Position numbers and translations under genes: made by a program
Assembly (NCBI GenBank): GCA_004212155.1
Contig: RXIG01000001.1
Coordinates: 1-64,000, forward strand
Reading direction: 5' to 3'
Source: an archaeon
GTDB lineage: Archaea; Methanobacteriota_B; Thermococci; Methanofastidiosales; NM3
DNA: 64,000 bases
Shown here: positions 1,448 through 21,061 of the stretch, one piece after another
How the letters are laid out: each line of letters begins with the position of its first letter
Numbering within the stretch: the first letter of the stretch is position 1
The notes under the pieces: model-generated
Told to the model about the DNA's origin: nothing
Database searches by the model: none
The model's input: the letters and a program-made list of their open reading frames with translations, nothing else

Positions 1448-2422
1448 ATGCGCCATCCACGGCCACGCATCGTGGTAAGCAGATGCCTAGGATTCGAGCA
1501 TTGCCGATACAATGGTGATATCATCTCAAGCGACGTAGTCAATGCGTTATCCGGCCATGTCGAGTATGTCCCAGTATGCGCCGAGGTTGAGATTGGCCTT
1601 GGGGTGCCGCGCAACCCGGTCAGGCTCGTGAGGTCTGATGGAGAGACGCATATGGTCCAACGTGACACGCTAAGGGATGTCACTAAGCTCATGGAGTCGT
1701 TTTCTGAGACATTCGTGGCATCTGTTGGCGATATCGATGGATGCATACTGAAAGGGCGTTCCCCCTCATGCGGTCTCCGTGACGCCAAGGCATACGGAGG
1801 CATCGAAAGTCCTTTCGTGCTGGAAAAGACAAGCGGATTGTTTGCTCGCACACTCCTGGATGCACATCCCACACTGGCGATGGAGGATGAGCTTCGATTG
1901 AAAAACATCCGGATCCGTGAACATTTCCTGACGAAGGTATTCATGCATGCCAGATATCGTGAGATGGCCAAGGCCCACACCCTGAAAGACCTGATCGCGT
2001 TCCATACGCAGAACAAGTATCTTTTCATGGCCTATAATCAGAACGAGCTCAGGGAAATGGGGCGAGTTGTGGCAAATCAGCATCTCTATGATTTCGATGA
2101 GCTGTTAGATATATACAGGGTACACCTCGATACGATGTTCGCATCCCCTCCGCGTCCGGGATCATACATAAACGTAATGGAACACATGTTTGGGTATTTC
2201 TCGCGTGAGCTCTCAGCCAGGGAGCGCGCCCACTTCCTCTCCATAGTCAAGGAGTATCGTGAAGGTCTGGTGCCCCTCAGTGCGCTCAGGGCGCTTATCG
2301 TTACGTGGGCGTTGCGGTTCGAGGACGACTACGTGCTTGAACAGACGGTCATCGAGCCGTATCCTAATCTCTTTATCGATCCCCAAGAGCTCTATCGCCA
2401 GCGGGATTACTGGAAGGAATAG
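1448..2422 (+). CDS. DUF523 (TudS-like 2-thiouracil desulfurase) + DUF1722 protein, YbgA family
   Basis: SRCLGFEHCRYNG, PVCAEVEIGLGVPR and KGRSPSCG motifs; C-terminal FHTQNKYLFMA and HMFGYF. Confidence 0.9.
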   Translation: MRHPRPRIVVSRCLGFEHCRYNGDIISSDVVNALSGHVEYVPVCAEVEIGLGVPRNPVRLVRSDGETHMVQRDTLRDVTKLMESFSETFVASVGDIDGCILKGRSPSCGLRDAKAYGGIESPFVLEKTSGLFARTLLDAHPTLAMEDELRLKNIRIREHFLTKVFMHARYREMAKAHTLKDLIAFHTQNKYLFMAYNQNELREMGRVVANQHLYDFDELLDIYRVHLDTMFASPPRPGSYINVMEHMFGYFSRELSARERAHFLSIVKEYREGLVPLSALRALIVTWALRFEDDYVLEQTVIEPYPNLFIDPQELYRQRDYWKE

Positions 2423-2476
2423 ATACCTCGTGGCTTCGGCATATCTTATTTATGTCCTTATCTCCATCTTGAATAG

Positions 2477-3664
2477 ATGGGAAATGACATACTCAGGCGC
2501 GAGGAGAGGTATCTGCAAAAGATCCGAAATGATATCGAGGAGCGATTGTACGACCTTCTCGTTCTCCACATCCGTGACGCCTACGTCCGCCTGCGTGTTC
2601 ATTGCGAGGAAAACGAGCATCTACGTACCGAATTCTTGTCCTTGCTCGAGGGCGCGCTAAGCTCGATACAGGACACGATGTCTCCCTACAACAAGCGATT
2701 CATGCATCGCTACATGCTGCTCATAAGCAATGTGATCTTGCAGTACGATACCTCGAGACAGGACATCAAGGACCTCAAGAAGCGCATCATCGAGGACTTC
2801 ACCCATGCCGAAGCAGACGAGCACGGCTACATACCACTCAACTACCAGATGAACGAGGTGCGACTCACCTATGATGTAGGTTATCTTGCTTATCTGGTGA
2901 AAAAATATATCGAACAGGAGCAGTGGACGAGGGCACTTTATTGCTTCAAGGCAGTCGAGATGATCGAGCCTGACCACAGGTCCCTTGAGCAATGGCATGG
3001 GGAGATATGGTCTAATCTCGACATGACCGAGCCGTCTGTAAGCCGTCCTGAGCGCCCCATGGGCACGGCGGTCGCACTAGACACCAACGTTGCCTACGGG
3101 CTTATAAGCGATGACATAGGGGAATACCGATTCAAGGACAGGCCACTGCTCGATGCATCGTCCCTTATCAGCGAAAACATCGTCATCATGACTCCCTCAG
3201 TCGTCAACGAGCTGCGCAACCATCTCGAGTTCACCAAGGTGCAGATACGTTCATTTTGCAAACACCACTCGCGATTCGATGCGGATGTGCTGTGCTCCAC
3301 CATCGACAAGCGTTTCAGTGACCTCGTCGATACCTATGCCCTAAAAACGCCCGTGTGCTATGATGAAGACCTCATTGGGTCTATCCGTGCGTTTTACCTT
3401 CGCTACATACCTACACTGGAGCGCCTCTTCGAGGAAAAGACACATCGAATGGCCATATCGCATCGGCTGAGGAAGCTGGCACAGCGTGTTGACCTGCTGC
3501 CCGAACAGGGTGACCTCGAGTTGCTTGCAGAGGTCGTCACGCTTCAGGAGGATCAAGGAAGGGACATCGGGCTCGTATCGCTTGACAAGGACTTCACGTT
3601 GTTTTCCTCCGATATCGAGGATACATTTGGCGTGCGTGTCTATTCTCCAAGCGATATGGGGTAG
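2477..3664 (+). CDS. Helical/TPR-like N-terminus fused to a C-terminal PIN-like nuclease domain
   Basis: VALDTNV, TPSVVNEL, GDLELLAE, VSLDKDF acidic tetrad; TPR-like ALYCFKAVEMIEPDH. Confidence 0.7.
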   Translation: MGNDILRREERYLQKIRNDIEERLYDLLVLHIRDAYVRLRVHCEENEHLRTEFLSLLEGALSSIQDTMSPYNKRFMHRYMLLISNVILQYDTSRQDIKDLKKRIIEDFTHAEADEHGYIPLNYQMNEVRLTYDVGYLAYLVKKYIEQEQWTRALYCFKAVEMIEPDHRSLEQWHGEIWSNLDMTEPSVSRPERPMGTAVALDTNVAYGLISDDIGEYRFKDRPLLDASSLISENIVIMTPSVVNELRNHLEFTKVQIRSFCKHHSRFDADVLCSTIDKRFSDLVDTYALKTPVCYDEDLIGSIRAFYLRYIPTLERLFEEKTHRMAISHRLRKLAQRVDLLPEQGDLELLAEVVTLQEDQGRDIGLVSLDKDFTLFSSDIEDTFGVRVYSPSDMG

Positions 3665-3679
3665 CGCGGCGCGGATGCC

Positions 3680-4303
3680 TTATAGCAGCTTGGAAGAGGC
3701 GATCGATGCAATGATGGCCGGCAGCTCGCCAATCGACGAGATCGTGATGTCTGCCTTCACTCCCACCCCGATGACGGGTATCTTTGCTGTGGACCCCGCT
3801 CTCACGTCGACGTTCGTATCACCAACGAGAACCACCTCGTCAGATGAAATGCCCAGTTCGTCGCATGCGGCAAAGAGGATGTCGGGCGCAGGTTTTCCCT
3901 TGCCTGCCCTGTCGGCCGTCATAATGGTGTCGAACGCATCGCCGATGCCAAACTCCTCGAGTATATGTGCCGTGCAGTCGTAGGCGGTGTTCGTCACGAT
4001 CGCCTTCGGGTAGTCGGAGAGCTCCTTGAGGACCCGTTTCGTATCGGGCATGATGCGTACGCTGCCGAGATGCTCAGGATAGACGTTGGTGCAAAAGTCC
4101 GCTATACCCACGTCAAGGCCCAGCCGCGTAAGTATGTCGCGCAGGTCGTCACCCCAGTAGGTGTCCATGAACTCCTCCATGCTGACTGCTTCATGCCCAT
4201 ACGTATCGAGCGCATGGTTGAACGCCTCGAGCCAGGAGGAGCTCGAGTCGATGAGCACACCATCCATGTCAAAAAGAATCCCTGAAAGCTGCATGGTCAC
4301 CAT
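3680..4303 (-). CDS. HAD-superfamily hydrolase (phosphoglycolate phosphatase-like)
   Basis: FDMDGVL motif I, VTN motif II, KPAP motif III, VGDTNVD motif IV. Confidence 0.92.
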   Translation of the reverse strand: MVTMQLSGILFDMDGVLIDSSSSWLEAFNHALDTYGHEAVSMEEFMDTYWGDDLRDILTRLGLDVGIADFCTNVYPEHLGSVRIMPDTKRVLKELSDYPKAIVTNTAYDCTAHILEEFGIGDAFDTIMTADRAGKGKPAPDILFAACDELGISSDEVVLVGDTNVDVRAGSTAKIPVIGVGVKADITISSIGELPAIIASIASSKLL

Positions 4304-4459
4304 TTCTTTTCATCATTCAAAACAGTTACGCTGAGCGCATGATGTGCCATTGACACCATGACATATTGGAATTGTATCGTGGATTCTTCCTAAGGCCGTA
4401 TTAACCACAAACGAAATGGTTATATGATTAAACGACGCATTCCTTCAAAGGTGCATGCC

Positions 4460-5725
4460 ATGAACGTTGGAGAGATCCATGATAAAGCTTCTAACAGCTC
4501 ACTGCTCTCAGACCCCTATGTCAAGAAGGTCCGTGAGCTCATCGGTCGCAACGACCTTTTCGAGAAATCCCCTGATGCGCTCGAGCGAATGCGCAAGGGG
4601 CTCTTGCGCGATGCGTTGTCGTTTTTTTCAAAGAGAAATGAACAGTTCGCACGGATACTGGATACCTGCGGCATAACGCCCGCTTCAGCCGATTTCGGCG
4701 ACCTTGCAAGCCTGGCCGTCCCCTCGGACATGCTTCGCGGCGAGGGACAGTCGCCGTTTCTTATTGACGGTCTGGACGAGGGGGGCGAGACATTTGCTTC
4801 GAGCGGGACCACCGGGAAGTCCCCTGTCAAGATCTATCGAAGCCCCCTTGACCTCGATATCATGATGAAGGCCAACACCGATCTCTTCGAGTACGTCTAT
4901 GGCGGCATGCTGGAGCAGGGCGAGGGCACGGCACTCTTCATGGCGGCACCCGAGCTTCGCGACAGGCTCTACTTCATAGCGTCGGTGCACCTTACCCTCG
5001 AGAACAAAGGGCTTGAGCTCATCTACGGAATGGACATGGTCGAAAGTGACGACCCCTCCCGGCCGTGGATGCGCCTTGAGCCGAATCGGGGCAACATCGT
5101 GAAGTTCCTTAAGGCCAAATCCGAGCCAAAGCTCTTCTTCACGGCTCCTGCAGGCATACACCTCATGTCTCAGCGCTTCGAGACGATGAACTTTTTGCGC
5201 CGATTAGCGTACAAGCTCGCAACTGGTTCGCCACCTGTCAAGCTCGGCAGGGGCGGTGTCATCGTGACGGGGGGAGGCAACAAGGGCGCAAGCGACCTGC
5301 CCCCATACGAGGCGATAGTGGGTGCCGCCCGCAGGCATTATCGTGCGCACGATCGGGGTGGAAGGGACGTAAAGGTCCCGTTCATGGACGTGCTCGGCAT
5401 GACCGAGACGCTTACCGCGCTCATAGACAACTTCGACACCATGGGAAAGGTGCCGCATCCATTGTCTCACGTCTTCCTTCTCGACCCCAAGACGATGGAG
5501 GTCATAGAAGAGGACGGCAGGGAGGGCATCCTTGGCATCTTCAACCCGTTCGTGACATCGTGGCCCGAGATCTTCTACCCGGGCGACATCATGACGTCCG
5601 TCCCGTCTGAACGGTATTACGGCAAGGAGTTCTCATACGTACGCCGTCTGCGCGTCGAGGAGGGATGGGACCTCCAGCGGGCATGCGGCGGTACGATGGA
5701 AGAGCTCATGGGATCACGGGAGTGA
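4460..5725 (+). CDS. LuxE-like acyl-protein synthetase (ANL/PaaK-LuxE family)
   Basis: SSGTTG, TGGGNKG, DVLGMTE, DPKTMEV, C-terminal RACG with Cys in the position of the LuxE acylated Cys; ATG 4460 chosen after AAGGTG (ORF track starts 4424). Confidence 0.8.
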   Translation: MNVGEIHDKASNSSLLSDPYVKKVRELIGRNDLFEKSPDALERMRKGLLRDALSFFSKRNEQFARILDTCGITPASADFGDLASLAVPSDMLRGEGQSPFLIDGLDEGGETFASSGTTGKSPVKIYRSPLDLDIMMKANTDLFEYVYGGMLEQGEGTALFMAAPELRDRLYFIASVHLTLENKGLELIYGMDMVESDDPSRPWMRLEPNRGNIVKFLKAKSEPKLFFTAPAGIHLMSQRFETMNFLRRLAYKLATGSPPVKLGRGGVIVTGGGNKGASDLPPYEAIVGAARRHYRAHDRGGRDVKVPFMDVLGMTETLTALIDNFDTMGKVPHPLSHVFLLDPKTMEVIEEDGREGILGIFNPFVTSWPEIFYPGDIMTSVPSERYYGKEFSYVRRLRVEEGWDLQRACGGTMEELMGSRE

Positions 5726-5729
5726 GCAT

Positions 5730-7193
5730 ATGACGCTCGATCCGATCTTTTCCCATGAAGCGCCCGTCGTGGTCCGAAAGGAGATGGGCAGAGAGGTGAT
5801 CAACGAACTCTCCCCCGAGTCGCTGGAATCGTACTTGTCACAGGCCCCAACGATGCAGGCCGATATCGCCGGCATATCACTTGACGACCGCATCGAGGTC
5901 TTTGCAAAGGTGGGGGCATTGTGGGAACGGAAGCGCAAGGCAGGCCTGCTCGACGACCTTAAACAACGTCTGGCCGCGTCATCGGGCTATAGTGCGCGAC
6001 TCATCGATGTCGAATTTTCCCTCGTACCCCTCTTGCTCGAACGTGCCACCCTTAGGAGGAACCTCTCTTCATCGCTTCTTGGCGGCGCCGATGGCCTTGA
6101 ACGCTTTACATCTGTCAACGAGGGGGAGTACTTCAGGCACCTGCCTGCCGGACCGGTCCTCATCATTAGCTCCGGCAACTCGATGATACCCCCCCTCATA
6201 CCCACGACGCTTTCCCTCATCACAGGCAACGTGACCGTGCTCAAACCATCGCTTTCCAACTACGAAGGCGTTGCATCCGTGTTTGCCCTTCTACGCGAGG
6301 TCGCAGAAACGGACCCGGCCGCAAAGAGCCTCCTTGAAGCGCTCGTCATCAGTTACTTCTCCCACGACAGCGCATCGCTATCGTACCTGCTCACGGCAGC
6401 ACCGCTTGGCGTGGTGAACTTCTGGGGATCAGAACCTGCCCGCTCGGTCATTGCCAAGATGCTTACCGAGAATCCGTCACATCCTTCGTATGTAGTCAAC
6501 GGACCGCTGACGGGGGTTGCGGTCGTCGATGCCGAGGCGGGAGAGAGAGCAGCGCAGGGGCTTGCCACAAACATCGTGCTCTACGACCAGCAGCTGTGCA
6601 GTTCACCCACTCAGGTTTGTTTCATCGGAGAGCGGGCACAGGCAGAGTCATTCGCACGACTCGTTGGTACGCATCTGGACGGCATGGGTGATGCTTTCGC
6701 GCTCCACCTTCCCGAGGGCGTCAGATTCTCACTCAACAACATCAGGCGAAGCTTGCTCTTCAAGGGTGCCTCCGTCCTTTCATCATCATCCGCGACCAAC
6801 CCATGGACCATCGTCATCACCGAGGACGGCGCCTCGCTCGATGAGCTCATCACCTCCTACCCCGAAATGGGCATTCACAACAGGCGGCGATTCCTCGAGC
6901 TCCATGTCGTCAATGATGTGGCTGAAGTGGGAAGACGTATCAGGGAGCTGCCCCATCGAAAAGCGTACCATGGTATCGATAGGGTGCAGACCGTCGGCGT
7001 CTCCGTTGGAACCGATGTTCACGGTGTGCTCATGGACGAGCTCCTGTCGACGGGCATCTACCGCATCACTCCCATTGATGACATGTACATGCGCAGCGCT
7101 TCAGAACCATACGATGGCGCCCATCTCGCTGCCCTGTTCACGTATACGCTCTACAGGCGTGACACGTCCCATGCTCCCGATGTGATGCCATGA
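5730..7193 (+). CDS. LuxC-like acyl-CoA/acyl-protein reductase (ALDH fold)
   Basis: ISSGN, GNVTVLKPS, FWGS, YDQQLCSSP (LuxC catalytic Cys motif), QTVG, PYDG. Confidence 0.85.
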   Translation: MTLDPIFSHEAPVVVRKEMGREVINELSPESLESYLSQAPTMQADIAGISLDDRIEVFAKVGALWERKRKAGLLDDLKQRLAASSGYSARLIDVEFSLVPLLLERATLRRNLSSSLLGGADGLERFTSVNEGEYFRHLPAGPVLIISSGNSMIPPLIPTTLSLITGNVTVLKPSLSNYEGVASVFALLREVAETDPAAKSLLEALVISYFSHDSASLSYLLTAAPLGVVNFWGSEPARSVIAKMLTENPSHPSYVVNGPLTGVAVVDAEAGERAAQGLATNIVLYDQQLCSSPTQVCFIGERAQAESFARLVGTHLDGMGDAFALHLPEGVRFSLNNIRRSLLFKGASVLSSSSATNPWTIVITEDGASLDELITSYPEMGIHNRRRFLELHVVNDVAEVGRRIRELPHRKAYHGIDRVQTVGVSVGTDVHGVLMDELLSTGIYRITPIDDMYMRSASEPYDGAHLAALFTYTLYRRDTSHAPDVMP

Positions 7194-8188
7194 GGGTCGC
7201 TGTGACGGGAGCTTCCGGGTTTCTCGGAGGGCACGTGTGCGAGGCGCTGCTGGAACGCGGGCATGAGCCCGTGGCGCTCATCCGTCCCACGAGCGACGAT
7301 TCACTCCTTTCGAGCCTCGGTGTCGAGATCCGTCACGCCGACCTTGTCGATGGGCCGAGCCTCAAGGAAGGGCTGCAGGGCGTTGACGCAGTCATGCACC
7401 TGGCGGCATATTATACGTTCTTTGGTTCGTGGGACCTCTACGAGCGTGTGAACGTCACGGGGACGAGGCTCCTGCTCGAAGCGATGTTTGATGCTGGCGT
7501 CGATAGGATCATCCATTGCAGCACGACAGAGGTCATCGGCCCCGTCAACGATCCTCCCGCGGATGAAAAAGCAGAGCCGAACCCCACATACGACTATGGG
7601 CGCTCAAAGCTCATGGCAGAGGAGGTCGTTCGTTCGTATGGAAAAAGAGGCGCAAGCTATACGATCCTTCGCCCCTCCGGCATCTACGGTCCACGCAACG
7701 TCGACGACATCTCGTACTGGACGATCACCTCGTATGCCAACAACGCCCTCGGGACGCGATTCCATGTTGGAAGCGCTCGCAGTCTCATCCAGTTCGTTCA
7801 CGTCCATGACGTTGTTCAAGCATTCATGCTGGCGCTTGAGCAACCTGAGGTATCCTGTGGAAAGACCTACAACGTGAGCGATAGCCGAGCGTACAGTTAC
7901 AAGGAGGTCTACGATATTCTCTCTGAGCTTACGGGACGCCCCCCGCCCTCGCTGCACGTCTCTCGTGCCTTGGCACGATTGATGGTCTCCCCCGTTGAAG
8001 TGGCGATGAGGTTTATAGGGAGGGAGTCGTTCCTCTATCGCCGATCGACCATAGATTCGGTGACGACCGACAGGGCATACAGCATCGAGCGCATATCACG
8101 GGAGCTGGGGTATGAACCACGTTACGACCTGCGAAGCGGATTGGAGGACACCGTAGCGTGGTACAGGGAGCACGGACATATACGCTAA
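7190..8188 (+). CDS. Extended SDR, NAD-dependent epimerase/dehydratase (3beta-HSD-like)
   Basis: TGASGFLG, HLAA, YGRSK, RPSGIYGP; ATGA overlap with the luxC-like gene. Confidence 0.92.
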   Translation: MRVAVTGASGFLGGHVCEALLERGHEPVALIRPTSDDSLLSSLGVEIRHADLVDGPSLKEGLQGVDAVMHLAAYYTFFGSWDLYERVNVTGTRLLLEAMFDAGVDRIIHCSTTEVIGPVNDPPADEKAEPNPTYDYGRSKLMAEEVVRSYGKRGASYTILRPSGIYGPRNVDDISYWTITSYANNALGTRFHVGSARSLIQFVHVHDVVQAFMLALEQPEVSCGKTYNVSDSRAYSYKEVYDILSELTGRPPPSLHVSRALARLMVSPVEVAMRFIGRESFLYRRSTIDSVTTDRAYSIERISRELGYEPRYDLRSGLEDTVAWYREHGHIR

Positions 8189-8200
8189 GAGCACGGCATT

Positions 8201-8782
8201 TCATATCTTGCTGAGCAGCGCATCTCGCTTCGCGCTGTATTCTTCTTGTGAGATGATGTCGGCATCGAGCAGTTCCTTTAGCTTCTTGAGCTGTTCGTAG
8301 GGGTCGGCGTCGTTTGATCGTTTTTCGGGTTCTGTGTGTGAGGGTCGTACAGGTGCAACGCGCGAGACCATCTCCTTTGGTTTGGAGATCTGCCATTCCT
8401 CGCTCATGAGGCCCTTTTTCTTCTTGATCGTCACCTGCTCCACAGCAATGTTGTTGAGGGCGTCGCGTACGGCCTCGATCGCCTCCTTCACCTCATCCTT
8501 GTTCATCCAGCTCATCCTGATATCATGGCCGTCCTCGTGGGTGAGCGTGAATTCGGCCGCGAGCTTGCCCGATTTGAAATGGACAAGCTTGAGCTTTTCA
8601 TACGGGATGTCCTCGATGTTGTATCTACCAAGCACCTTTTGGTCGAGATAGATGATCCTTCTGTCGGTAACGCCCAGGAACTTGGGCTTGAGTTCCGTTT
8701 TCATCCTTTTTTTGATGCAAAAAAGGACATTCTCATTAGAATAGAGATTTTCAGACAATTCCTTGGGTATCTGTTCGGCCAT
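8201..8782 (-). CDS. Bacterial-type PH domain + C-terminal SHOCT domain protein
   Basis: GVTDRRIIY (bPH) and LKKLKELLDADIISQEEYSAKR (SHOCT). Confidence 0.85.
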   Translation of the reverse strand: MAEQIPKELSENLYSNENVLFCIKKRMKTELKPKFLGVTDRRIIYLDQKVLGRYNIEDIPYEKLKLVHFKSGKLAAEFTLTHEDGHDIRMSWMNKDEVKEAIEAVRDALNNIAVEQVTIKKKKGLMSEEWQISKPKEMVSRVAPVRPSHTEPEKRSNDADPYEQLKKLKELLDADIISQEEYSAKRDALLSKI

Positions 8783-8886
8783 GATGTATCATTTCTTATC
8801 TGGTGGTCTACATTGTTAAACATTATGTTCAAATGACGTTGCCATGCGCGCACTACAAGACACGTTTCTCGATTGTCACCTGTTTC

Positions 8887-9405
8887 TCACCTGCGCTTTC
8901 GTGGGGCAGCAAGGTCTGGTCTGACCGTTCTTCGCAGGGTCTCCAGCGCCTCTGCCATTATATGGGCTATTTCAACATCATCATCGTAGTGCTCGATAAT
9001 GGCAAGCAGCACCGCTTCCGTTCGTGGAAGCTCCTTGACTATCTCGTCTGGGGTTGTCGGTTTCATGGATCGTCCATGTTCACCCGTGCTGAACAGGTAG
9101 TAGTCAACGAGCGAGAACAATTCGAGGCCGGACTGATCCTCCACGACGACAATGGGCATGTAGATGCTTTCGCCCATGTCGTTTTTCGTACGCTTGATAT
9201 ATCCTTTCTTGGCAAGGGATGTTAGGGCGCTTCGGACGCTGCTTTCCTTTTCCAATCCCAACACCGCCATGGCGTCATGAGCGATGGTGGCATAGGTCGC
9301 GTTTCGGTTCACCATAAGGTATGCTAGCACCTCCATGTGAAGGTCGTTTTGCACCTTTCTCTTCACTGCCTCCATATCTTTGAAAATCATGGGACTGCCC
9401 TTCAA
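8887..9405 (-). CDS. Winged-helix DNA-binding protein
   Basis: VLAYL...SSVRSALTSLAKKGYIKR wHTH signature; start uncertain. Confidence 0.65.
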   Translation of the reverse strand: MKGSPMIFKDMEAVKRKVQNDLHMEVLAYLMVNRNATYATIAHDAMAVLGLEKESSVRSALTSLAKKGYIKRTKNDMGESIYMPIVVVEDQSGLELFSLVDYYLFSTGEHGRSMKPTTPDEIVKELPRTEAVLLAIIEHYDDDVEIAHIMAEALETLRRTVRPDLAAPRKRR

Positions 9406-9540
9406 CTCTTCTGGAACCCTAGTTGAAACAACATCATTGGAATATTATATGCATACTATATTCTTGCAAGTATAATAAATGCTACCATTGACTACAGTGG
9501 AGGGCTCCAGCTGAGGAGAAAAATCCAGGCAAGCCTCGTT

Positions 9541-9819
9541 TCATTGCCCTTTCGTTTTAAGCGAATAGAGGAAGAGGAAGCAGGCGAGGAGGAAAAGGGC
9601 GCTTCCAGCAGTTATCAGTGTATCGCCGCTACGCACTCCTGAGATCAAGAACAGCACTGCACAGAGCAAGAACAGCATCCAGCCCATCCCTTGGATCGTC
9701 TGTGACCTGGAATCCATGGTAGTTGTATGCATGCCACCGTTTAATGGTTTTCCTTGTCGAAAGGATGTCCCGATATTAACCAAATGTCGAAGCCAAAATA
9801 TATAAGTGAGCACGACCAT
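9541..9819 (-). CDS. Small 2-TM membrane protein
   Basis: GWMLFLLCAVLFLISG...GSALFLLACFLF; true start probably an internal Met. Confidence 0.65.
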   Translation of the reverse strand: MVVLTYIFWLRHLVNIGTSFRQGKPLNGGMHTTTMDSRSQTIQGMGWMLFLLCAVLFLISGVRSGDTLITAGSALFLLACFLFLYSLKTKGQ

Positions 9820-9889
9820 TTCATTCTTTGCAATGTTTTTGTCATGCTAACATTATCATGAGCGAGGGGATAATATCTATAGGGAACGG

Positions 9890-10555
9890 ATGAATCACGA
9901 TGGTCAACACATGCGTCACGTCGAATGCATCGATGATTGTGATTCATCTATGTTGCGTGCCCTCTTCCTGAACAACGGGATCGCCCTTGCGCTCTTCGAC
10001 AGGGACCTGCGGCTCATCGATGCCAATGCGGAGTTTGAAAACATCGTTAAATACGAACGTGGCGACTATATGTTCCATGCATGGAAGCGCATGCTCGATC
10101 CCTCGTCGATGGAAAAGGTGCAATCGTTTGCCAATATGCGTTTTAGGGACCCGCGCTCCGCCCCCAGCCAGTATGAACTGACTATCGTTGACGGCATGGG
10201 ACAACAAAAACACATCATCGTCAATGTTAGCTTCATTTCCAGCAGGGGCGCTTCGCTCGTTTCCATTACCGACATCACAGATATCAAACGAACGCAGGAA
10301 GACCTCAAAAATAGAAATGAGCTACTGAAGGAATTGCTCGAACGTCTCTATCATGATGCCCAAACACCTCTTGTGACGCTCTACTCATACTCGGATCTCC
10401 TGTGCGAGGCTGTCAAGCATGAAGAGAAGGACCAGGCCCACCTCTACCTCAAGGTCATCAAGGATGCATCGATATCACTGTCCGAGGTATTGCGCGACAT
10501 GGCGATCAAGGGCATACATCACCCTCCCCCGGTGACCAAGAAAGAGCGGAAATGA
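9890..10555 (+). CDS. PAS domain + HisKA-like dimerisation domain, no HATPase domain
   Basis: PAS (DANAEF...SITDITDIKR) followed by H-box HDAQTPLVTL; ends shortly after. Confidence 0.8.
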   Translation: MNHDGQHMRHVECIDDCDSSMLRALFLNNGIALALFDRDLRLIDANAEFENIVKYERGDYMFHAWKRMLDPSSMEKVQSFANMRFRDPRSAPSQYELTIVDGMGQQKHIIVNVSFISSRGASLVSITDITDIKRTQEDLKNRNELLKELLERLYHDAQTPLVTLYSYSDLLCEAVKHEEKDQAHLYLKVIKDASISLSEVLRDMAIKGIHHPPPVTKKERK

Positions 10556-10589
10556 TGCGTGCTGGACGTAGGCGACTTTTTATATATCC

Positions 10590-11165
10590 TTGATTCACAT
10601 TTACTATATGGACGATTCAGCTATCGCGACATTGAGGGAATCAGCTTCCCGGTGGGGAGCCACCTCCACAAGGGTCATACCGATAGAGGATGTATGCGTC
10701 GAGGATTGGGTGTTGCTCAAGTGCGAGTATGGGTGCAAGATGTATGGGAAGCGTTTCACATGCCCCCCCTATGCGCCGTCGCCTGACGAAACACGCAAGA
10801 CGTTATCGAACTACAAGAAGGCGCTTCTCCTCGAGTTCAAGGACCTCACTGACAGGGCCCAGTGGCGTGAGATTCAGATAGCAATGTACGAACTGGAACG
10901 TGAAGCGTTTCTCCTGGGATTCTATCGGGCGTTTGCATACACTTGCGGTGCGTGCAAGCTCTGTGAGGACTGTCCATCCGATGACATTGGGGTGCCCACA
11001 CGCTTTGACAAGAGAAAATGCAAGAACAGGCGCCGCGCTCGCCCTTCGATGGAGGCATGTGGCATCGACGTGTTCCAGACGGCCAGGAACGGGGGGTATG
11101 AGATGCGTGTTGTGCATGATGAGAACGGTTGCTTCGACAGTTTCTGTCTTTTGCTCTTGGAATAA
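10590..11165 (+). CDS. DUF2284 family Cys-rich predicted metal-binding protein
   Basis: KCEYGC, TCPP, CGACKLCEDC, RPSMEACGIDV. Confidence 0.88.
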   Translation: MIHIYYMDDSAIATLRESASRWGATSTRVIPIEDVCVEDWVLLKCEYGCKMYGKRFTCPPYAPSPDETRKTLSNYKKALLLEFKDLTDRAQWREIQIAMYELEREAFLLGFYRAFAYTCGACKLCEDCPSDDIGVPTRFDKRKCKNRRRARPSMEACGIDVFQTARNGGYEMRVVHDENGCFDSFCLLLLE

Positions 11166-11294
11166 TGAGAACGCTGCATCGTACCCTTGAAACGCGCTTT
11201 GACCATGGACTGTCGGCGCACAATCCAACGCTATTATAGAGCGCAGATGGCACTTTATGGGTATTGTGATACCTAAAAATCACAATATTTTTAT

Positions 11295-12371
11295 ATGATT
11301 CAACTCTATTGCATTCATGGTGATACAATAAAGCGAAATACTAGTGTTACTCTGTTGGTATTCATGCTCCTGTGTTCGCTTGGGTCTTTCGGACTCATCG
11401 GGGCCCAGGTCATGGAAAGCAATGATGGCGGAGGCTTTGGATACAAGGGCAACGGCATGATGGGCGTCGGAGTTTTAGGAGAAGAAGGAGACGGCGAGGA
11501 AGGCGCAACTGAAAGTGAAGCATCAGCGACCCTAGATGAGGCCCAGTCGCTCCTTGCAGCTTACCTTGAGCAGCATCCTGATGCATCGAGTGAGGCGCTC
11601 ACGAATGTTCAGGCGCTTATCGAGGAAGCCATCACCGCATACGATGAAGGCGACTACGAAACCGCCTTGAGCAAGGCTGAAGAAGCCATTGGCATCCTCG
11701 AGGGCATGATCGAGGAAGCAGGTGAGGAAGAAGCTCTCAAAGAAGCCGCAGCCGAGGCCATAGAACAGGCCGAAGACCTCCTGGCAGGGTTACTCGAGGC
11801 CCAGGAAGAAGGCGAAGAGGACAATAGCGAACTCATAGCGTCAGCCGAGACGCTCATAGAGGAAGCCATCACCGCATACGATGAAGGCGACTACGAGACC
11901 GCCTTGAGCAAGGCTAATGAATCTATCACGCTTATGGGCGGGGAGCCAGTCACCCCAGGCACTGAAGATGATACCGCGGTGATCATGGAAAAGGCCGAGC
12001 AGGCACTCGCCGATGCAGAAGCTGCCGTCTCGGCATTGCAGGAAGCATATGTCGAAGGGTCTCATCCGGCCGTTTCGACTCTCATGGACCTTGCCATTAG
12101 TAAGCTCGAGAGCGCCCAAGCGGCATTCGAGAATGGAGATTATGGGCATGCCAAGGGCCAGGCCACTGCGGCCGCATCGATAGCAGAGAATGCCTTGAGA
12201 AAGCTTGAGCAATCATCCGAAGAGGGTGAAGGGGAGCTTGCTGGCGAAGGAGGCGGCAAGCCAGAGGATGCTGGGCCCCCAGAGGATGCTGGGCCCCCAG
12301 AGGATGCTGGGCCTCCCGAGCATGCTGGACCTCCAGAGAACCCCGGCAATGGGAAAGGAAAGGGCAACTAA
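11295..12371 (+). CDS. Secreted, highly acidic helical-repeat protein with Pro/Gly-rich tail
   Basis: Signal-peptide-like KRNTSVTLLVFMLL; Glu/Ala-rich helical repeats; PEDAGP repeats; start ambiguous. Confidence 0.8.
   Translation: MIQLYCIHGDTIKRNTSVTLLVFMLLCSLGSFGLIGAQVMESNDGGGFGYKGNGMMGVGVLGEEGDGEEGATESEASATLDEAQSLLAAYLEQHPDASSEALTNVQALIEEAITAYDEGDYETALSKAEEAIGILEGMIEEAGEEEALKEAAAEAIEQAEDLLAGLLEAQEEGEEDNSELIASAETLIEEAITAYDEGDYETALSKANESITLMGGEPVTPGTEDDTAVIMEKAEQALADAEAAVSALQEAYVEGSHPAVSTLMDLAISKLESAQAAFENGDYGHAKGQATAAASIAENALRKLEQSSEEGEGELAGEGGGKPEDAGPPEDAGPPEDAGPPEHAGPPENPGNGKGKGN
11622..11915 (+). repeat. 57-bp direct repeat (11622-11678 and 11859-11915) encoding EEAITAYDEGDYETALSKA
   Basis: Two copies differing by one synonymous base (GAA/GAG). 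Confidence 0.9.
12261..12332 (+). repeat. 18-bp tandem repeat x4 (CCAGAGGATGCTGGGCCC), encoding PEDAGP
   Basis: Two exact and two degenerate copies. Confidence 0.9.
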
Positions 12372-16593: not shown

Positions 16594-17127
16594 TCATTCA
16601 ATAAGGCGCATGAACTCTTCCCTCGGCTCCTGGCGCCTGAACGCTCCGGATATGGCCGACGTGACCATCTCGGGACTCTGGGTCTTGACGCCGCGCATCT
16701 CCATGCAGAGATGCCTGGCCTTGACGACGACCATGACGTCCTCGGTGTAGAGCGCATCGGTGAGGCCGTTGAGGATCTGCTGTGTCATGTTCTCCTGGAG
16801 CTGCGGCTGTGAGGCATATTTGATGACGAGGCGCGCAAGCTTTGATATGCCGCATATCTTGGTCTGTGGGATGTATCCAACCGCCACCCTGCCAAAGAAG
16901 GGGAGGAGGTGGTGTGAGCACATCGAATAGAAGTTTGGCACCTTGAGAACGACCATCTGGTCGTAATGCTCGCTGTTTTCAAAGACGGTAAAGGAGTAGT
17001 CCCTGTTGCGTTCCCACTCCTCCCAGAATCGTTCGATGCGCTTGGGCGTGTTCTCTATTTCCTCATCGTTGAAGAATCCGTATCGCCTCTGCAGCGCTTT
17101 CATATATTCGCGTATCATCTCTTCCAT
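16594..17127 (-). CDS. folE: GTP cyclohydrolase I (type IA)
   Basis: TPKR, SMCSHHLLPFFG, GISKLAR, QLQE, HLCMEMRGV. Confidence 0.95.
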   Translation of the reverse strand: MEEMIREYMKALQRRYGFFNDEEIENTPKRIERFWEEWERNRDYSFTVFENSEHYDQMVVLKVPNFYSMCSHHLLPFFGRVAVGYIPQTKICGISKLARLVIKYASQPQLQENMTQQILNGLTDALYTEDVMVVVKARHLCMEMRGVKTQSPEMVTSAISGAFRRQEPREEFMRLIE

Positions 17128-17783
17128 TGTCGTTCACCAGGGTCGTTTAATCCTGCGTTTCGAAACGCCCCCTTCCTCTCGCGGCACGTGCCGCACCTTC
17201 CACACGGCGCGTCATGCCCCTTGTAGCAGCTCCACGTATGCTCGAACGGGACGCCGAGTGCGTGCCCGCGCATCACGATGTCAGTCTTCGACCATGTCAT
17301 GAAGGGCGCCAGGAGCTCGACCTGATTATAGGTGCCGGAGCGTGCCGCCGTGCCAAGGGCTTCGATGAACTCGGGACGGCAGTCGGGGTACACGGCCCGA
17401 TCATTGCGGTGCGCACCGTAGTAGACGCGCTTTAGGCCCCGGTCCTCGGCGACGCCAACGGCGTATGAGAGGAGGATCATGTTCCTGTTCGGCACGACCG
17501 TGCTCTTCTGGTTCTCGATCGAGTAGTCGCCCTCGGGGATATCCTCGCCCCCGTGCAACAGGGAGCTTGACGAGAAGATCGTGTCGAGGGGCACCGTGAG
17601 CACCACGTGCGGGATGCCAAGCTCCTTGGCGCTCAAGCGCGCCATCGCTATCTCCCTGCCGTGCTTCTGGCCGTAGTCAAACGTCAGCGCGAGCGGGAAG
17701 CGGCCCTCGTCGACCAGATGGTAGAGGAGTACGGTGCTATCGAGCCCGCCGCTGAGTATCATCACGCAGTCCTCGTTCATCAT
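17115..17783 (-). CDS. queC: 7-cyano-7-deazaguanine synthase
   Basis: SGGLDS, YGQKH, VPNRN, YPDCR, TWSCY...CGRCGTC; start at ATG overlapping queE stop. Confidence 0.95.
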   Translation of the reverse strand: MMNEDCVMILSGGLDSTVLLYHLVDEGRFPLALTFDYGQKHGREIAMARLSAKELGIPHVVLTVPLDTIFSSSSLLHGGEDIPEGDYSIENQKSTVVPNRNMILLSYAVGVAEDRGLKRVYYGAHRNDRAVYPDCRPEFIEALGTAARSGTYNQVELLAPFMTWSKTDIVMRGHALGVPFEHTWSCYKGHDAPCGRCGTCRERKGAFRNAGLNDPGERQWKR

Positions 17784-18376
17784 ACGCCCCTCCTGTCGTC
17801 GAAGACGAGCACATGGAGTCGTGGCGACAGGGCATAGCCGCGCGCCACGCATGCAGACCAGAGGGGAGCAAGGAGTCGTGTCGCCTCGTCCTTGGTGGTG
17901 CACATAGGTTGGATATAGACGCGTTCCCTGGCAATCCCCGTCCTTAAGACATAGCGGTCGACCTCTTCAAGATCCCCCTTTCCACCCACGACGAACTTGT
18001 AGCAGTCCGCCAGCGGGGGCATGCCTGCAAGGGACTTTGGTGAGACGGTCACGTGGTCGAAGAGGCCTGAAGGCACGGGGATCGTGCCGTTGGTCTCCAC
18101 CGTATGCCGGTATCCTCTGACGGACGCGACTACGTCCTCGATGGCCGAGCGCTGCAGCAGCGGTTCTCCGCCCGTCCAGCATACCCATGATAGGTGCGAG
18201 GAGCGTATGCGCATTGCGACGTCCTCTGCGCTCATCTCACGTCCTTCGTCGCGCGCATAGGGCGTGTCGCACCATTCGCAGGACAGGTTGCATCCAGCAA
18301 GTCGTATGAAGAGCATGGGGCGCCCCATGAGCGCGCCCTCGCCTTGAATGCTCTCGAATATCTCAGTGACCCTCAC
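17780..18376 (-). CDS. queE: 7-carboxy-7-deazaguanine synthase (radical SAM)
   Basis: EIFESIQGEG, CNLSCEWCDT, TGGEP, ETNG, VSPK, PRLH. Confidence 0.95.
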   Translation of the reverse strand: MRVTEIFESIQGEGALMGRPMLFIRLAGCNLSCEWCDTPYARDEGREMSAEDVAMRIRSSHLSWVCWTGGEPLLQRSAIEDVVASVRGYRHTVETNGTIPVPSGLFDHVTVSPKSLAGMPPLADCYKFVVGGKGDLEEVDRYVLRTGIARERVYIQPMCTTKDEATRLLAPLWSACVARGYALSPRLHVLVFDDRRGV

Positions 18377-18719
18377 GGACCCACCTTACCTCTGCGTAGC
18401 TGTCGCGGTCCTCCCAGACGCGTACGGTAAGCTCGGTCACGTTGGGCACTCGCAACGATTCGTTGATGGCGCCGGCCATCTGTTCTGCGGTCGGCTGCTC
18501 AAGCATATCGTTGAGGAATGCATGGTCATAGCGCGATACCGAGCGTTTGATCTCTGCGTAATCGATAATCATCCCCGTTTCGTCGAGCTCTCCCGTTGCC
18601 CAGATCTCGATGAGGTAGTTATGGCCGTGCAGGTCCGTGCATTTCGAAGGATATGGGAGCTCGAGCCTGTGTGCGGCCGACACCTCTCCCCTCCAGTAGA
18701 TGCGTCGTGAGATCATCAT
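18363..18719 (-). CDS. queD: 6-carboxy-5,6,7,8-tetrahydropterin synthase
   Basis: AAHRL, CxxLHGHNY, DHAFLN, PTAE, VWE; AGGTGA SD overlapping the polB stop. Confidence 0.93.
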   Translation of the reverse strand: MMISRRIYWRGEVSAAHRLELPYPSKCTDLHGHNYLIEIWATGELDETGMIIDYAEIKRSVSRYDHAFLNDMLEQPTAEQMAGAINESLRVPNVTELTVRVWEDRDSYAEVRWVREGH

Positions 18720-18724
18720 ATCAC

Positions 18725-21061
18725 CTAAAACCATCCCTCAAGGCTCGATTGTCGCGTCCTTTGGTACTCGAGCTCCTCTTTGGAATATCCGAGCGGCTGC
18801 AAGATGCGCGCCACCGAGGGAATGACCTGATTTTGTATGTAGTAGTTGGCATCGATCTCCTCCCCGTTGTACTCGTCGACGGGGATCACCTTGTCGCGTA
18901 TGCGTCCCTGCCCCTTTAGTACGAGATAGGAGATGATCGTGCCCACGCGCACGTCGTCGCCGCGTTCCTTGAGACGCTTGGCGATCTGTACGTGCGGTCC
19001 GATGGCCTTGTATTGCGAGAGTGCCATGGTAAGCTGCGTATCTATGACGAGGTCGTCTATCGGTACCCTGTTCTCCTTGAGTGAGAGTGTCACCTGCTGC
19101 ACGTGCGCTATGGCGCCTTGGATGTCGGCGTCCCGGAGGATCTTTTCAAGCACGGTGCGCTGGGTCTTCTTGGCGATGCCTGTCCAATCGCGCCGCACGA
19201 CCTCGAGCCCCTTCGTGATGATCTTGTCGTCGTCATCGATGAGCGCATACTTCTTCTTCGTCACGAACAGCCCCCTGCGATAGTATCCCTCGAGCTCGAG
19301 CTCCATGCGCTCTGGCATGCGCTCGTTGACGGATGCGAGGAACTCCTGGGCACGGTCGAGGTCCTTGGTCGGCGTGCATACGAAAAGGGAGTCGGTATCT
19401 CCGTAGACGACGGAGAGGCCCTCGGACTGGGCCTGGTCGATGACGCTGTTGATATACTTTCGTCCCCATGCCGTTATCGACTCGGCCGCCTCCTTCGAGT
19501 ACCACCGCGAGCGCGGATATCCGAGATACCCGTAAAACGAGTTCGCAAGGATCTTGAGAGCCCATTGCTGGCTGTAGAGCGATTTGTGCTCAAACCCCGT
19601 GGCCTTGCCCATGCGTTCCTTGATGCGCATGCGCTCGCTGAGCAGGCTGTCGAGTATCGCGGGGATGAATCCCTTCTCCTTGAGGCAGAAGCAATGACCC
19701 GTCGGCGCCATGTTGTCGGTGCAGCACTCGCAATCGAGCGTGTACGGGTCAACGTTGTGGCTGATGATGATCGATGGGTACAGCGAACGGAAATCAAAGT
19801 AGAAGATATGCTCATGCAGCCCCTTTATCGGTTCGACGACATACGCGCCCTCGTAGGTCTCGGCGAAACGACGCGAGAGGTCAGCAGAGCTTGGTGGGCT
19901 GGGTATGAGTGCATTGAGCTCGTGGCTGTGGCGCATGAGGAGCCATTCGACAAGGGCCGACGACGAAGCGCGCGCAACGTCAAAGGGGCGCTGATTGACG
20001 ATCTTTGTCATCTCATACTGGAGCGGCAGCATCTGCTCGCCTATCTCGAATGTGGAAACGGCGTCGTCGCGTGAGTATTCGACAAGCTCCTCGAGCAGGG
20101 ACTCGTCGTCCCAGTACTGCCATATCTTCGAGCCGTCAAGGTCCGACTTCTCGCGCCCCATATACTCGGCGTAGACGGCCTCGAGCGTGTAGCGGGAGAC
20201 GTTCACGTTCTTTTTCACGATGGGGTAGAGGTCGACATGGACCATGCCAGGGACCTCCGCGCTCGTGTTCGACCCACGTCCTTTTAGCTTCATATGGGAC
20301 ACGAAGGGGTGGGAGATGCCATTGACCTCGCAGCGTTTCTTGATGTAGGGGAGGTCGAAGTTGTCGCCGTTGTAGGTAACGAAGACCTCTGGCGAGAGGC
20401 GGTCGAGGAAGGCGAAGAACCCCTCGAGCATCGACGCCTCGTCGTCAAAGTGGTCGACACCCTTGCACGCCTTCCAGCAAAAGACGTGCGACTCCTCGCC
20501 CGTTGCAGCCGATATCATGATGATCGGGTCCGTAGCGGCATCAGGCATCGACTTGTTGACGCTGTATGTCTCGATGTCAAGGCTCATTGACGTAAGCTCC
20601 TCAGGCGCATCCTGGGAGGGAACAGCGTCAACGAGGTACTCCCTGCCGTTACGCAGTTCGGTCGTCATGTCGAGCGGCATGAGGGGTCGAAGCCCTGTGT
20701 CGATGAGGTAGCGGCGGACATAGGGAATGTCATACTCGAATATCGTCGCGTACTGCGCAATGTCTTCGCGAAGTTCGGGCACGTCGAAGGGGTATCTGAA
20801 AAATACCTTGAGGACAGTGACGTCCTCATGGTCGTAGCGTTTGGTGACCTCCTCGGTGCGAAGCACCTGGACGACCTTTTCCTTTGAGACCTTCACAAGA
20901 TCCTCGATTTTCTCGCGCGCCCCTTCCTCCGAGGGGATCGCGTATATGTAGGGATCGTGCCTGTCATCGTAGATGATGCGGGCGGAATCGCCCTCCTTGA
21001 CGAAGAGCCGCACTGCCGTTTTTTCGTCCATCGCGACATAATCGCAGTCATAGATGATCAT
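18725..21061 (-). CDS. polB: Family B DNA polymerase (PolB3-type), no intein
   Basis: DIET, YNGDNFD, DFRSLYPSII, KILANSFYGY, YGDTDS, KKYA; uracil-pocket EYDIP; C-terminal PIP box QSSLEGWF. Confidence 0.97.
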   Translation of the reverse strand: MIIYDCDYVAMDEKTAVRLFVKEGDSARIIYDDRHDPYIYAIPSEEGAREKIEDLVKVSKEKVVQVLRTEEVTKRYDHEDVTVLKVFFRYPFDVPELREDIAQYATIFEYDIPYVRRYLIDTGLRPLMPLDMTTELRNGREYLVDAVPSQDAPEELTSMSLDIETYSVNKSMPDAATDPIIMISAATGEESHVFCWKACKGVDHFDDEASMLEGFFAFLDRLSPEVFVTYNGDNFDLPYIKKRCEVNGISHPFVSHMKLKGRGSNTSAEVPGMVHVDLYPIVKKNVNVSRYTLEAVYAEYMGREKSDLDGSKIWQYWDDESLLEELVEYSRDDAVSTFEIGEQMLPLQYEMTKIVNQRPFDVARASSSALVEWLLMRHSHELNALIPSPPSSADLSRRFAETYEGAYVVEPIKGLHEHIFYFDFRSLYPSIIISHNVDPYTLDCECCTDNMAPTGHCFCLKEKGFIPAILDSLLSERMRIKERMGKATGFEHKSLYSQQWALKILANSFYGYLGYPRSRWYSKEAAESITAWGRKYINSVIDQAQSEGLSVVYGDTDSLFVCTPTKDLDRAQEFLASVNERMPERMELELEGYYRRGLFVTKKKYALIDDDDKIITKGLEVVRRDWTGIAKKTQRTVLEKILRDADIQGAIAHVQQVTLSLKENRVPIDDLVIDTQLTMALSQYKAIGPHVQIAKRLKERGDDVRVGTIISYLVLKGQGRIRDKVIPVDEYNGEEIDANYYIQNQVIPSVARILQPLGYSKEELEYQRTRQSSLEGWF

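Follow-up and report, generated by a model that had tools for sequence, protein, structure and literature searches.

What would an anaerobic archaeon do with a LuxE-like and a LuxC-like protein encoded side by side, in a genome without luciferase? The question is raised by three genes at positions 4424/4460–8188 of a 64,000-nucleotide stretch of DNA, referred to below as the window, which comprises positions 1 to 64,000 of contig RXIG01000001.1 (assembly GCA_004212155.1; Methanofastidiosales, NM3). A first-pass annotation, made from the letters of the window, had read these genes as an acyl-reductase operon of luxE, luxC and an extended short-chain dehydrogenase/reductase (SDR), without luxD, and had set bioluminescence aside since luxAB is absent from the window. 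We propose that the operon probably encodes a LuxE/LuxC-type system for carboxylate reduction, complete in itself, which would convert an acid to an aldehyde and then to an alcohol using ATP and NAD(P)H. This reading draws on homology, on the retention of catalytic residues, on the linkage of the genes, and on both a naturally fused form and a modelled complex of the first two proteins. The mechanism class is well supported; each reaction step, the choice of cofactor, what the SDR does and, most of all, the acid that is reduced are inferred.

The source genome (1.49 Mb in 28 contigs, 89.8% complete) encodes McrA and carries one copy of the cassette. Neither the luciferase family (PF00296) nor LuxD (PF02273) has a match anywhere in the 1.49 Mb, so the absence of luxAB and luxD extends beyond the window and supports the exclusion of light production.

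Organization of the operon

4424/4460–5725, forward strand: gene 1, predicted LuxE-like acyl-protein synthetase; the longest open reading frame (ORF), 433 amino acids, begins at 4424 and the probable start is 4460
5730–7193, forward strand: gene 2, predicted LuxC-like acyl-thioester reductase, 487 amino acids
7190–8188, forward strand: gene 3, extended SDR of the 3beta-HSD/HpnA/aldehyde-reductase type, 332 amino acids

All three genes are intact and co-directional. Genes 1 and 2 are separated by a gap of 4 nt (GAG TGA gcat ATG), and genes 2 and 3 share a start/stop overlap (cc ATGA ggg). The tight coupling, the 4-nt gap and the ATGA overlap had been noted in the first-pass annotation and are as described there, as are the sequence motifs SSGTTG, RACG and DQQLCSSP, which are found as FASSGTTGK and QRACGG in the product of gene 1 and as YDQQLCSSP in that of gene 2. 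The start of gene 1 is probably the ATG at 4460 rather than that at 4424, because its homologues begin at Met13 of the longest ORF; the Atlas record likewise begins at residue 13.

The LuxE-like protein

Residue numbers for gene 1 are those of the window protein (P0001, the 433-amino-acid ORF). An alignment of the archaeal family (23 sequences) was compared by hhalign with an alignment of nine Pfam-certified LuxE proteins; the two match with a probability of 99.9 and an E value of 7.8e-34 over 358 columns, corresponding to residues 28–430. The match pairs GGGxK of the archaeal family with GGWK, the RR pair with R, and QRACGG with RGCA. In a single-sequence search of the PDB, the top match of gene 1 is LuxE (7xc6_E; E value 0.0055), with VRRL placed on VRRL, and 27 of the 30 matches in an Atlas search fall in the LuxE-carrying set. 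When 1.84 billion representatives were searched with a profile, 79 relatives were retrieved, 25 of which, picked as full or near-full length, were scanned against Pfam. LuxE is above threshold in ten of these 25, and PaaK/AMP-binding in none; AMP-binding appears below threshold in two, as the sole match of P0131 and in P0182, which is one of the ten LuxE proteins. Among the other scanned relatives, one is a fusion carrying LuxC, 12 have no match at all and P0197 matches scattered unrelated families. The homologues are mostly annotated as 'hypothetical' or 'phenylacetate-CoA ligase'.

The sequence contains the P-loop S126-SGTTG, the motif G325-MTE, D388, K287 in the loop T282-GGGxKG, the pair R407/R408, and C421. 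All 23 sequences keep T282, G284, K287, G288, R407 and R408, and G283 and G285 are almost invariant, while C421 (QRACGG), which lies 12 residues before the C-terminus, is kept in at least 90% and pairs in the alignment with the invariant Cys of the RGCA motif of LuxE. A C-terminal Cys is likewise present in all of the more distant subfamilies read, in the contexts ERACGG, DRACGG, RPGCG, RSGC and REGCG. According to PMC9157457, LuxE is set apart from PaaK by the lack of an ANL C-terminal subdomain, by the GGGWK motif with Lys238, by Arg354/355, and by an acyl-accepting Cys in a flexible C-terminal tail; every one of these traits is present in the gene 1 family. K287 and R407/R408 would accordingly play the roles of Lys238 and Arg354/355, and C421 would be the putative acyl acceptor. 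Relative to LuxE, the archaeal sequence has some 50 additional residues and a conserved extension at its N-terminus, and its Arg-to-Cys tail has 13 residues rather than 9.

The structural model of gene 1 (pLDDT 82.3, pTM 0.85) has a tail, residues 419–433, with pLDDT below 50. The N-domain of PaaK1 alone (chain residues 7–330) covers the model from 42 to 412, with just a 21-residue disordered tail beyond, which indicates that the ANL C-terminal subdomain is missing. No counterpart of the PaaK C-terminal subdomain with its catalytic Lys (Lys422 in PaaK1) was found in gene 1, and AMP-binding and AMP-binding_C are unmatched too. Foldseek and wider fold searches with the model never listed 7xc6_E; this absence is uninformative, and such searches cannot rank LuxE, because 7XC6 resolves just 118 of the 373 residues of LuxE (PMC9157457). 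At the profile level, the gene 1 family is LuxE-like over its whole length.

The LuxC-like protein

The product of gene 2 matches the Pfam family LuxC (PF05893) with an E value of 1.4e-31 and 110.3 bits (cut-off 21), as against 29.3 bits (4.3e-07) for Aldedh. With a family profile built from 14 orthologues, the sole sequence match in the PDB is LuxC (7xc6_A; E value 1.3e-17), and YDQQLC is paired with YDQQAC of 7xc6_A, which contains Cys296. The segment Y285-DQQLCSSPT includes the catalytic C290 and is invariant from Y285 to T294 except for S291, which is kept in at least 90% of the rows. The AlphaFold model (pLDDT 91.3) is closest to 7xc6_A (Z 37.7, root-mean-square deviation 2.7 Å, 443 residues); the second-closest structure is GAPN (1uxn; Z 29.0), and all other aldehyde dehydrogenases score at most 29.0. 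A generic aldehyde dehydrogenase, which the first-pass annotation had named as the competing assignment, thus falls behind LuxC at 29 versus 110 bits and at Z 29.0 versus 37.7. Like LuxC, the archaeal reductase has an aldehyde dehydrogenase fold and a Cys in a YDQQxC motif. By sequence, it is a LuxC-family protein and not an orthologue of the LuxC of lux operons.

Association of the two proteins

The cassette resembles LuxC-LuxE of Photobacterium phosphoreum (7XC6; PMC9157457) as a two-protein acid-to-aldehyde machine encoded by adjacent genes, the archaeal function being predicted. The archaeal proteins are just about 18% identical to that pair. Unlike the lux operon, the archaeal genome lacks luxA, luxB and luxD, the host is an anaerobic archaeon, and the third gene encodes an SDR.

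The representative library contains a natural fusion (P0135, 884 amino acids), whose LuxE-like domain closes with RPGCGAS and runs straight into a LuxC domain bearing FEQKLCSSP. It belongs with a sister subfamily (P0133 type, tail RPGCG) that has the same E-C pair and the same catalytic motifs. In the following metagenome loci, overlapping genes encode a radical SAM/SPASM enzyme, a LuxE-like protein and a LuxC-like protein with the motif FEQKLCSSP, and there is no SDR gene.

L084, 240–4044: sister-subfamily locus
L085, 3730–6650: sister-subfamily locus
L086, 3–3670: sister-subfamily locus

Since a radical SAM/SPASM enzyme stands here in the place of the SDR, the E-C pair may be a portable module employed in different pathways. 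Upstream of the sister-subfamily genes, L085 carries a carbamoyltransferase gene and two uncharacterised genes.

The modelled complex of the gene 1 and gene 2 products reaches an ipSAE of 0.71, as compared with 0.00 for the best of three controls; the mark applied to this score is one that 116 of 157 solved complexes attained, as did 2 of 215 mismatched pairs. Runs share at least 68% of the contacts, and the partner pLDDT is at least 83. On the LuxE-like side the interface comprises residues 74–108, 355–387 and 409–412, the last stretch lying directly after R407/R408. It thereby includes the site beside the Arg pair where, according to PMC9157457, the solved LuxC-LuxE complex has a salt bridge joining R354 of LuxE to D335 of LuxC. 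As a like complex has already been solved, the score may partly reflect memory of that structure. The model supports binding between the two proteins and shows likeness, not proof.

Conservation of the gene trio

Eighty archaeal loci were fetched, nine of which were too short downstream; in the 71 informative loci, the DNA extends 2.6 kb or more downstream. The three genes are found in the order E-C-SDR and on the same strand in 64 of these 71 loci, so the synteny that the first-pass annotation had suggested as a check is kept in most of them. The survey of neighbours, in which 1124 ORFs from the 80 loci and the window were clustered and 28 flank representatives were scanned against Pfam, revealed no conserved fourth gene, only lineage-specific neighbours.

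Proposed reaction sequence

The LuxE-like enzyme would adenylate a free carboxylic acid with ATP, with K287 and R407/R408 acting in the formation of the acyl-AMP, and the acyl group would then shift to the enzyme's own Cys421 on the flexible tail. The tail would swing into the bound LuxC-like partner and pass the acyl group to Cys290, where NAD(P)H would reduce the thioester and release a free aldehyde. Finally, the SDR, probably NADPH-dependent, would reduce the aldehyde to a primary alcohol. The overall chemistry is similar to that of the carboxylic acid reductases (CAR) and fatty acyl-CoA reductases (FAR), in which an ATP-activated acid becomes a thioester and is reduced with NADPH to an aldehyde, and often onward to an alcohol by an SDR-type reductase. 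In CAR, the acyl group is carried on a phosphopantetheine arm and reduced by an SDR-type R domain, whereas the archaeal set would employ a protein Cys as carrier and an ALDH-fold (aldehyde dehydrogenase-fold) reductase.

Gene 3 had been annotated as an extended SDR, and its product matches Epimerase in Pfam with an E value of 1.1e-44. The TGxxGFxG motif (T6, G7, G10, F11, G13), R32, S111 and Y136-xxx-K140 are invariant in 14 sequences, and the top match in the PDB is 3wj7, a 'putative oxidoreductase' (6.9e-38). In an SDR, an Arg after strand 2, here R32, suggests NADPH as the cofactor. Gene 3 is read here as encoding a probable NADPH-dependent aldehyde reductase.

Alternative explanations and evidence against the proposal

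Several observations weigh against the proposed pathway, and other explanations were considered. The first concerns the last step. The aldehyde might itself be the product, for instance for condensation or transamination, while the SDR would work elsewhere on that molecule, at a keto or hydroxyl group, in the manner of HpnA, SdmB or OleD. These are the top NCBIfam matches of gene 3 (4e-47, 2.9e-43 and 2.2e-39, respectively), and none of them is named an aldehyde reductase. The E-C pair occurs without the SDR in 2 of the 71 loci, the LuxE-like gene stands alone in 5, and in L084–L086 the radical SAM enzyme is present instead; the alcohol-forming step is thus not obligatory in the module. On the other side, the three NCBIfam matches are far below their equivalog cut-offs (160.7 versus 367.65 bits for HpnA, 148.9 versus 600 for SdmB and 135.8 versus 580 for OleD), and the protein also matches thioester-reductase and male-sterility NAD-binding models. 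Moreover, free aldehydes are reactive, and a reductase coupled as tightly as the ATGA overlap implies is the simplest reading. On balance we regard the aldehyde as final product as unlikely, while worth keeping in view. In the five genomes with a lone LuxE-like gene, a LuxC-like gene is present elsewhere in two (L049, L052) and none was shown in three. In these two (genomes G136 and G133, Zestosphaera/Sulfolobales-labelled) the lone gene is flanked on one side by a GH57/DUF3536 gene and on the other by a DUF58 gene, and in G133 the luxC-like gene is on the same contig (C6) as the luxE-like gene.

The second set of observations concerns the identity of gene 1, which has no match in Pfam even at an E value of 10 and none in NCBIfam, the LuxE equivalog included. 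A family representative (P0125) barely passes the Pfam LuxE model (PF04443), with 27.4 versus 24.9 bits and over the C-terminal third only, and falls under the NCBIfam LuxE equivalog cut-off (NF052244; 20.9 versus 550). The Pfam check suggested by the first-pass annotation held for gene 2, which matches LuxC (1.4e-31), and failed for gene 1, which does not match LuxE. Furthermore, the top PDB match of the gene 1 family profile is not LuxE but the N-terminal part of PaaK2 (E value 0.059), and the nearest solved folds of the model are PaaK-family CoA ligases (Z 25–26.6, about 3 Å root-mean-square deviation over 315–335 residues). For gene 2, the NCBIfam equivalog LCFA_red_LuxC scores 46.9 bits against a cut-off of 750.

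These results, with the name 'phenylacetate-CoA ligase' given by JGI to several homologues, would suit an acyl-CoA route, in which gene 1 encodes an acid:CoA ligase of the PaaK type, gene 2 encodes a CoA-acylating aldehyde dehydrogenase acting on free acyl-CoA, and no acyl-protein relay takes place. Gene 1 does share with the PaaK-family CoA ligases (2Y27, 2Y4O, 6HE0, 4R1L; Z about 26) the fold of the large adenylating domain and the P-loop SSGTTG. Unlike them, it lacks the C-terminal subdomain, which in PaaK1 bears the catalytic Lys422 and drives formation of the CoA thioester, and so would have no thioester-forming conformation; in its place there are the LuxE-type GGGxK loop and a conserved C-terminal Cys. 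The natural E-C fusion and the modelled complex also speak for a relay between the two proteins. The first-pass annotation had named PaaK or F390 synthetase as the best profile that would overturn a LuxE assignment; the hhalign match to LuxE, the LuxE-specific residues and the missing PaaK subdomain point to LuxE instead, and we consider the acyl-CoA route improbable.

Less probable again is a role in decoration of a glycan or lipoglycan, in which the pair would supply an acyl-derived group for a surface glycan and the SDR would act on a nucleotide sugar. In PMC7874193, luxE and luxC are listed as conserved in the Group II flagellin glycosylation islands of Aeromonas, an instance of the pair without luciferase and outside light production, and a liposugar is proposed. 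The Aeromonas pairs sit among genes for an acyl carrier protein, a ketoacyl-ACP reductase, an AMP-ligase and glycosyltransferases (PMC7874193), whereas the archaeal cassette has the SDR alone. The SDR does match sugar epimerase and dehydratase models, but these matches are weaker than those to 3wj7 and the HpnA-type families, and the flanks of the archaeal cassette vary by lineage, with no recurrent glycosyltransferase or sugar-nucleotide gene among them.

An oxidative, catabolic direction from alcohol through aldehyde to acid is hardly credible: SDRs and aldehyde dehydrogenases can in principle run both ways and LuxC has an aldehyde dehydrogenase fold, but a partner that consumes ATP to AMP would be senseless in that direction, and LuxC, according to the review PMC12041015, has retained nothing of the hydrolytic aldehyde dehydrogenase active site except the catalytic Cys.

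Distribution and evolution

The nearest named loci are titled Methanomicrobia archaeon and Methanofastidiosia archaeon. Within the class of the source organism, the gene is present in 4 of 6 other genomes of its own family and in none of 126 genomes of the other five families, and within the order of L010 (Methanomassiliicoccus-labelled) it is present in 43 of 261 species genomes. By record title, the carriers include Methanomassiliicoccales, Methanomethylicia/Methanosuratincola, Odinarchaeia, Brockarchaeota and Thermofilales, as well as Zestosphaera/Sulfolobales, Archaeoglobales, Conexivisphaerales and 'Nitrososphaeria'. Two of the carrier records, Methanosuratincola LCB70 and LWZ-6, are presumably cultured or enriched strains.

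The LuxE-like protein shows about 55–70% identity across phyla. A quick maximum-likelihood tree was built from 71 LuxE-like proteins and 2 outgroups, rows shorter than 380 amino acids being left out. Classes cluster in this tree, which requires 8 label changes versus a mean of 23.3 after shuffling; the 28 Thermoplasmata rows form one clade (support 93), and the backbone is unresolved. The phylogeny suggested in the first-pass annotation thus groups the proteins by class. Recent horizontal spread was considered and rejected on this clustering, which indicates long residence within lineages with frequent loss rather than a recent sweep.

A locus of the same genus (L001, 95.5% nucleotide identity) is collinear with the window over 1853–5531 and then jumps to 9666–11291. 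It is without positions 5532–9665 of the window (4.1 kb), which hold the 3' end of the luxE-like gene, the whole luxC-like gene, the SDR gene and two neighbouring genes. What is left of the luxE-like gene (L001:2571–3859) is split into two frames, and the junction (L001:3663–3677) shows a short imperfect microhomology, GCA..GCATCC. The gap may mean that the cassette has truly been lost or, alternatively, that the assembly was joined across it. A close relative without the cassette implies that it is dispensable, a further point against the proposal. The cassette is an accessory trait, passed down in several lineages of anaerobic archaea and frequently lost.

Candidate substrates

The first-pass annotation had offered as examples alkyl chains for non-isoprenoid ether lipids, the recycling of isoprenoid acids and a small-molecule product, all of which are guesses. 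The residues lining the LuxC cleft offer little guidance: the hidden Markov model alignment of gene 2 to 7xc6_A extends only to residue 363, which leaves five cleft positions mappable, and L107, W111, M114, S118 and A121 of LuxC correspond to V94, L98, L101, R105 and L108 of gene 2, a mixed pattern that is not decisive. A hydrophobic acid as substrate is a guess made by analogy with the LuxC fold. More specifically, the cassette could be the entry to an undescribed archaeal pathway in which a long hydrophobic acid, fatty or isoprenoid, is converted to an aldehyde or alcohol destined for a membrane lipid of unusual type, a compound resembling wax or a novel cofactor; we hold this to be a doubtful proposition. 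On this reading the pathway would be common to methyl-reducing methanogens, Odinarchaeia, Brockarchaeota-type and Thermofilales/Zestosphaera-type archaea. Were it so, the 55–70% identity across phyla and the class clades would reflect a function that is ancient and under strong constraint, and not recent transfer.

Neighbouring genes and other features of the window

3680–4303, reverse strand: HAD-IA hydrolase ORF, 207 amino acids, divergent from the operon (Pfam HAD_2, 2.4e-35)
4420..4427, forward strand: candidate archaeal promoter of the operon, a TATA-like box TTATATGA with a BRE-like element CGAAATGG before it, picked by eye from the sequence

The HAD gene is divergent, as had been annotated. 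It was considered as a member of the unit and rejected: it recurs in 1 of the 80 loci, and since that locus is L001, of the same genus, the gene is not part of the unit. The TTATATGA box lies about 33 nt upstream of the ATG at 4460, and with CGAAATGG it may constitute an archaeal operon promoter. A sigma-70 promoter scan of the leader is uninformative for archaea. An Rfam scan for riboswitches and leader RNAs found no element in the leader and one sub-threshold chance match inside the SDR gene. A PLSDB blastn search for a plasmid origin gave no match. Among public sequencing runs, no RNA run with the locus is listed, and for DNA runs the highest shared fraction of sampled words is 0.33.

Elsewhere, the flanks of the cassette include UbiA and radical SAM genes in Methanomassiliicoccaceae and a ComB-like phosphatase gene in Brockarchaeota-type loci. 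In Methanosuratincola-type loci (L006, L008, L026) a thioredoxin gene lies upstream, and genes for glutaredoxin, a ferredoxin-thioredoxin-reductase/rubredoxin fusion and DUF169 lie downstream; a link between these thiol-redox neighbours and the two catalytic cysteines is possible.

Directly after the operon, a gene for a bPH_3 and SHOCT protein (8201–8782, reverse strand) was observed, which is not conserved beside the cassette elsewhere. Three further features of the window were recorded. The gene at 1448–2422 (forward strand) encodes a fusion of a 2-thiouracil desulfurase domain with DUF1722 (Pfam 2.9e-33 and 4.1e-38), and that at 11295–12371 (forward strand) a very acidic, probably secreted protein of 358 amino acids with internal duplications and C-terminal PEDAGPPEDAGPPEDAGPPEHAGPPENPG repeats (from the translation). 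At 16594–21061 (reverse strand), genes resembling those for GTP cyclohydrolase I, QueC, QueE and QueD (preQ0/archaeosine) stand beside a family B DNA polymerase gene, as judged by eye from the translations.

Implications

The chemistry of LuxC and LuxE has been worked out in luminous bacteria, and the divergent archaeal version evades the Pfam LuxE model. Our literature search found no published account of an archaeal LuxE/LuxC cassette. The operon would offer biotechnology a compact, CoA-independent carboxylate reductase. The cassette is present in at least six hard-to-grow archaeal lineages, including Asgard (Odin) archaea and Thermoproteota methanogens. Identifying the acid it acts on would extend archaeal metabolism by a new route from acid to alcohol, one that could bear on unusual lipids or cofactors.

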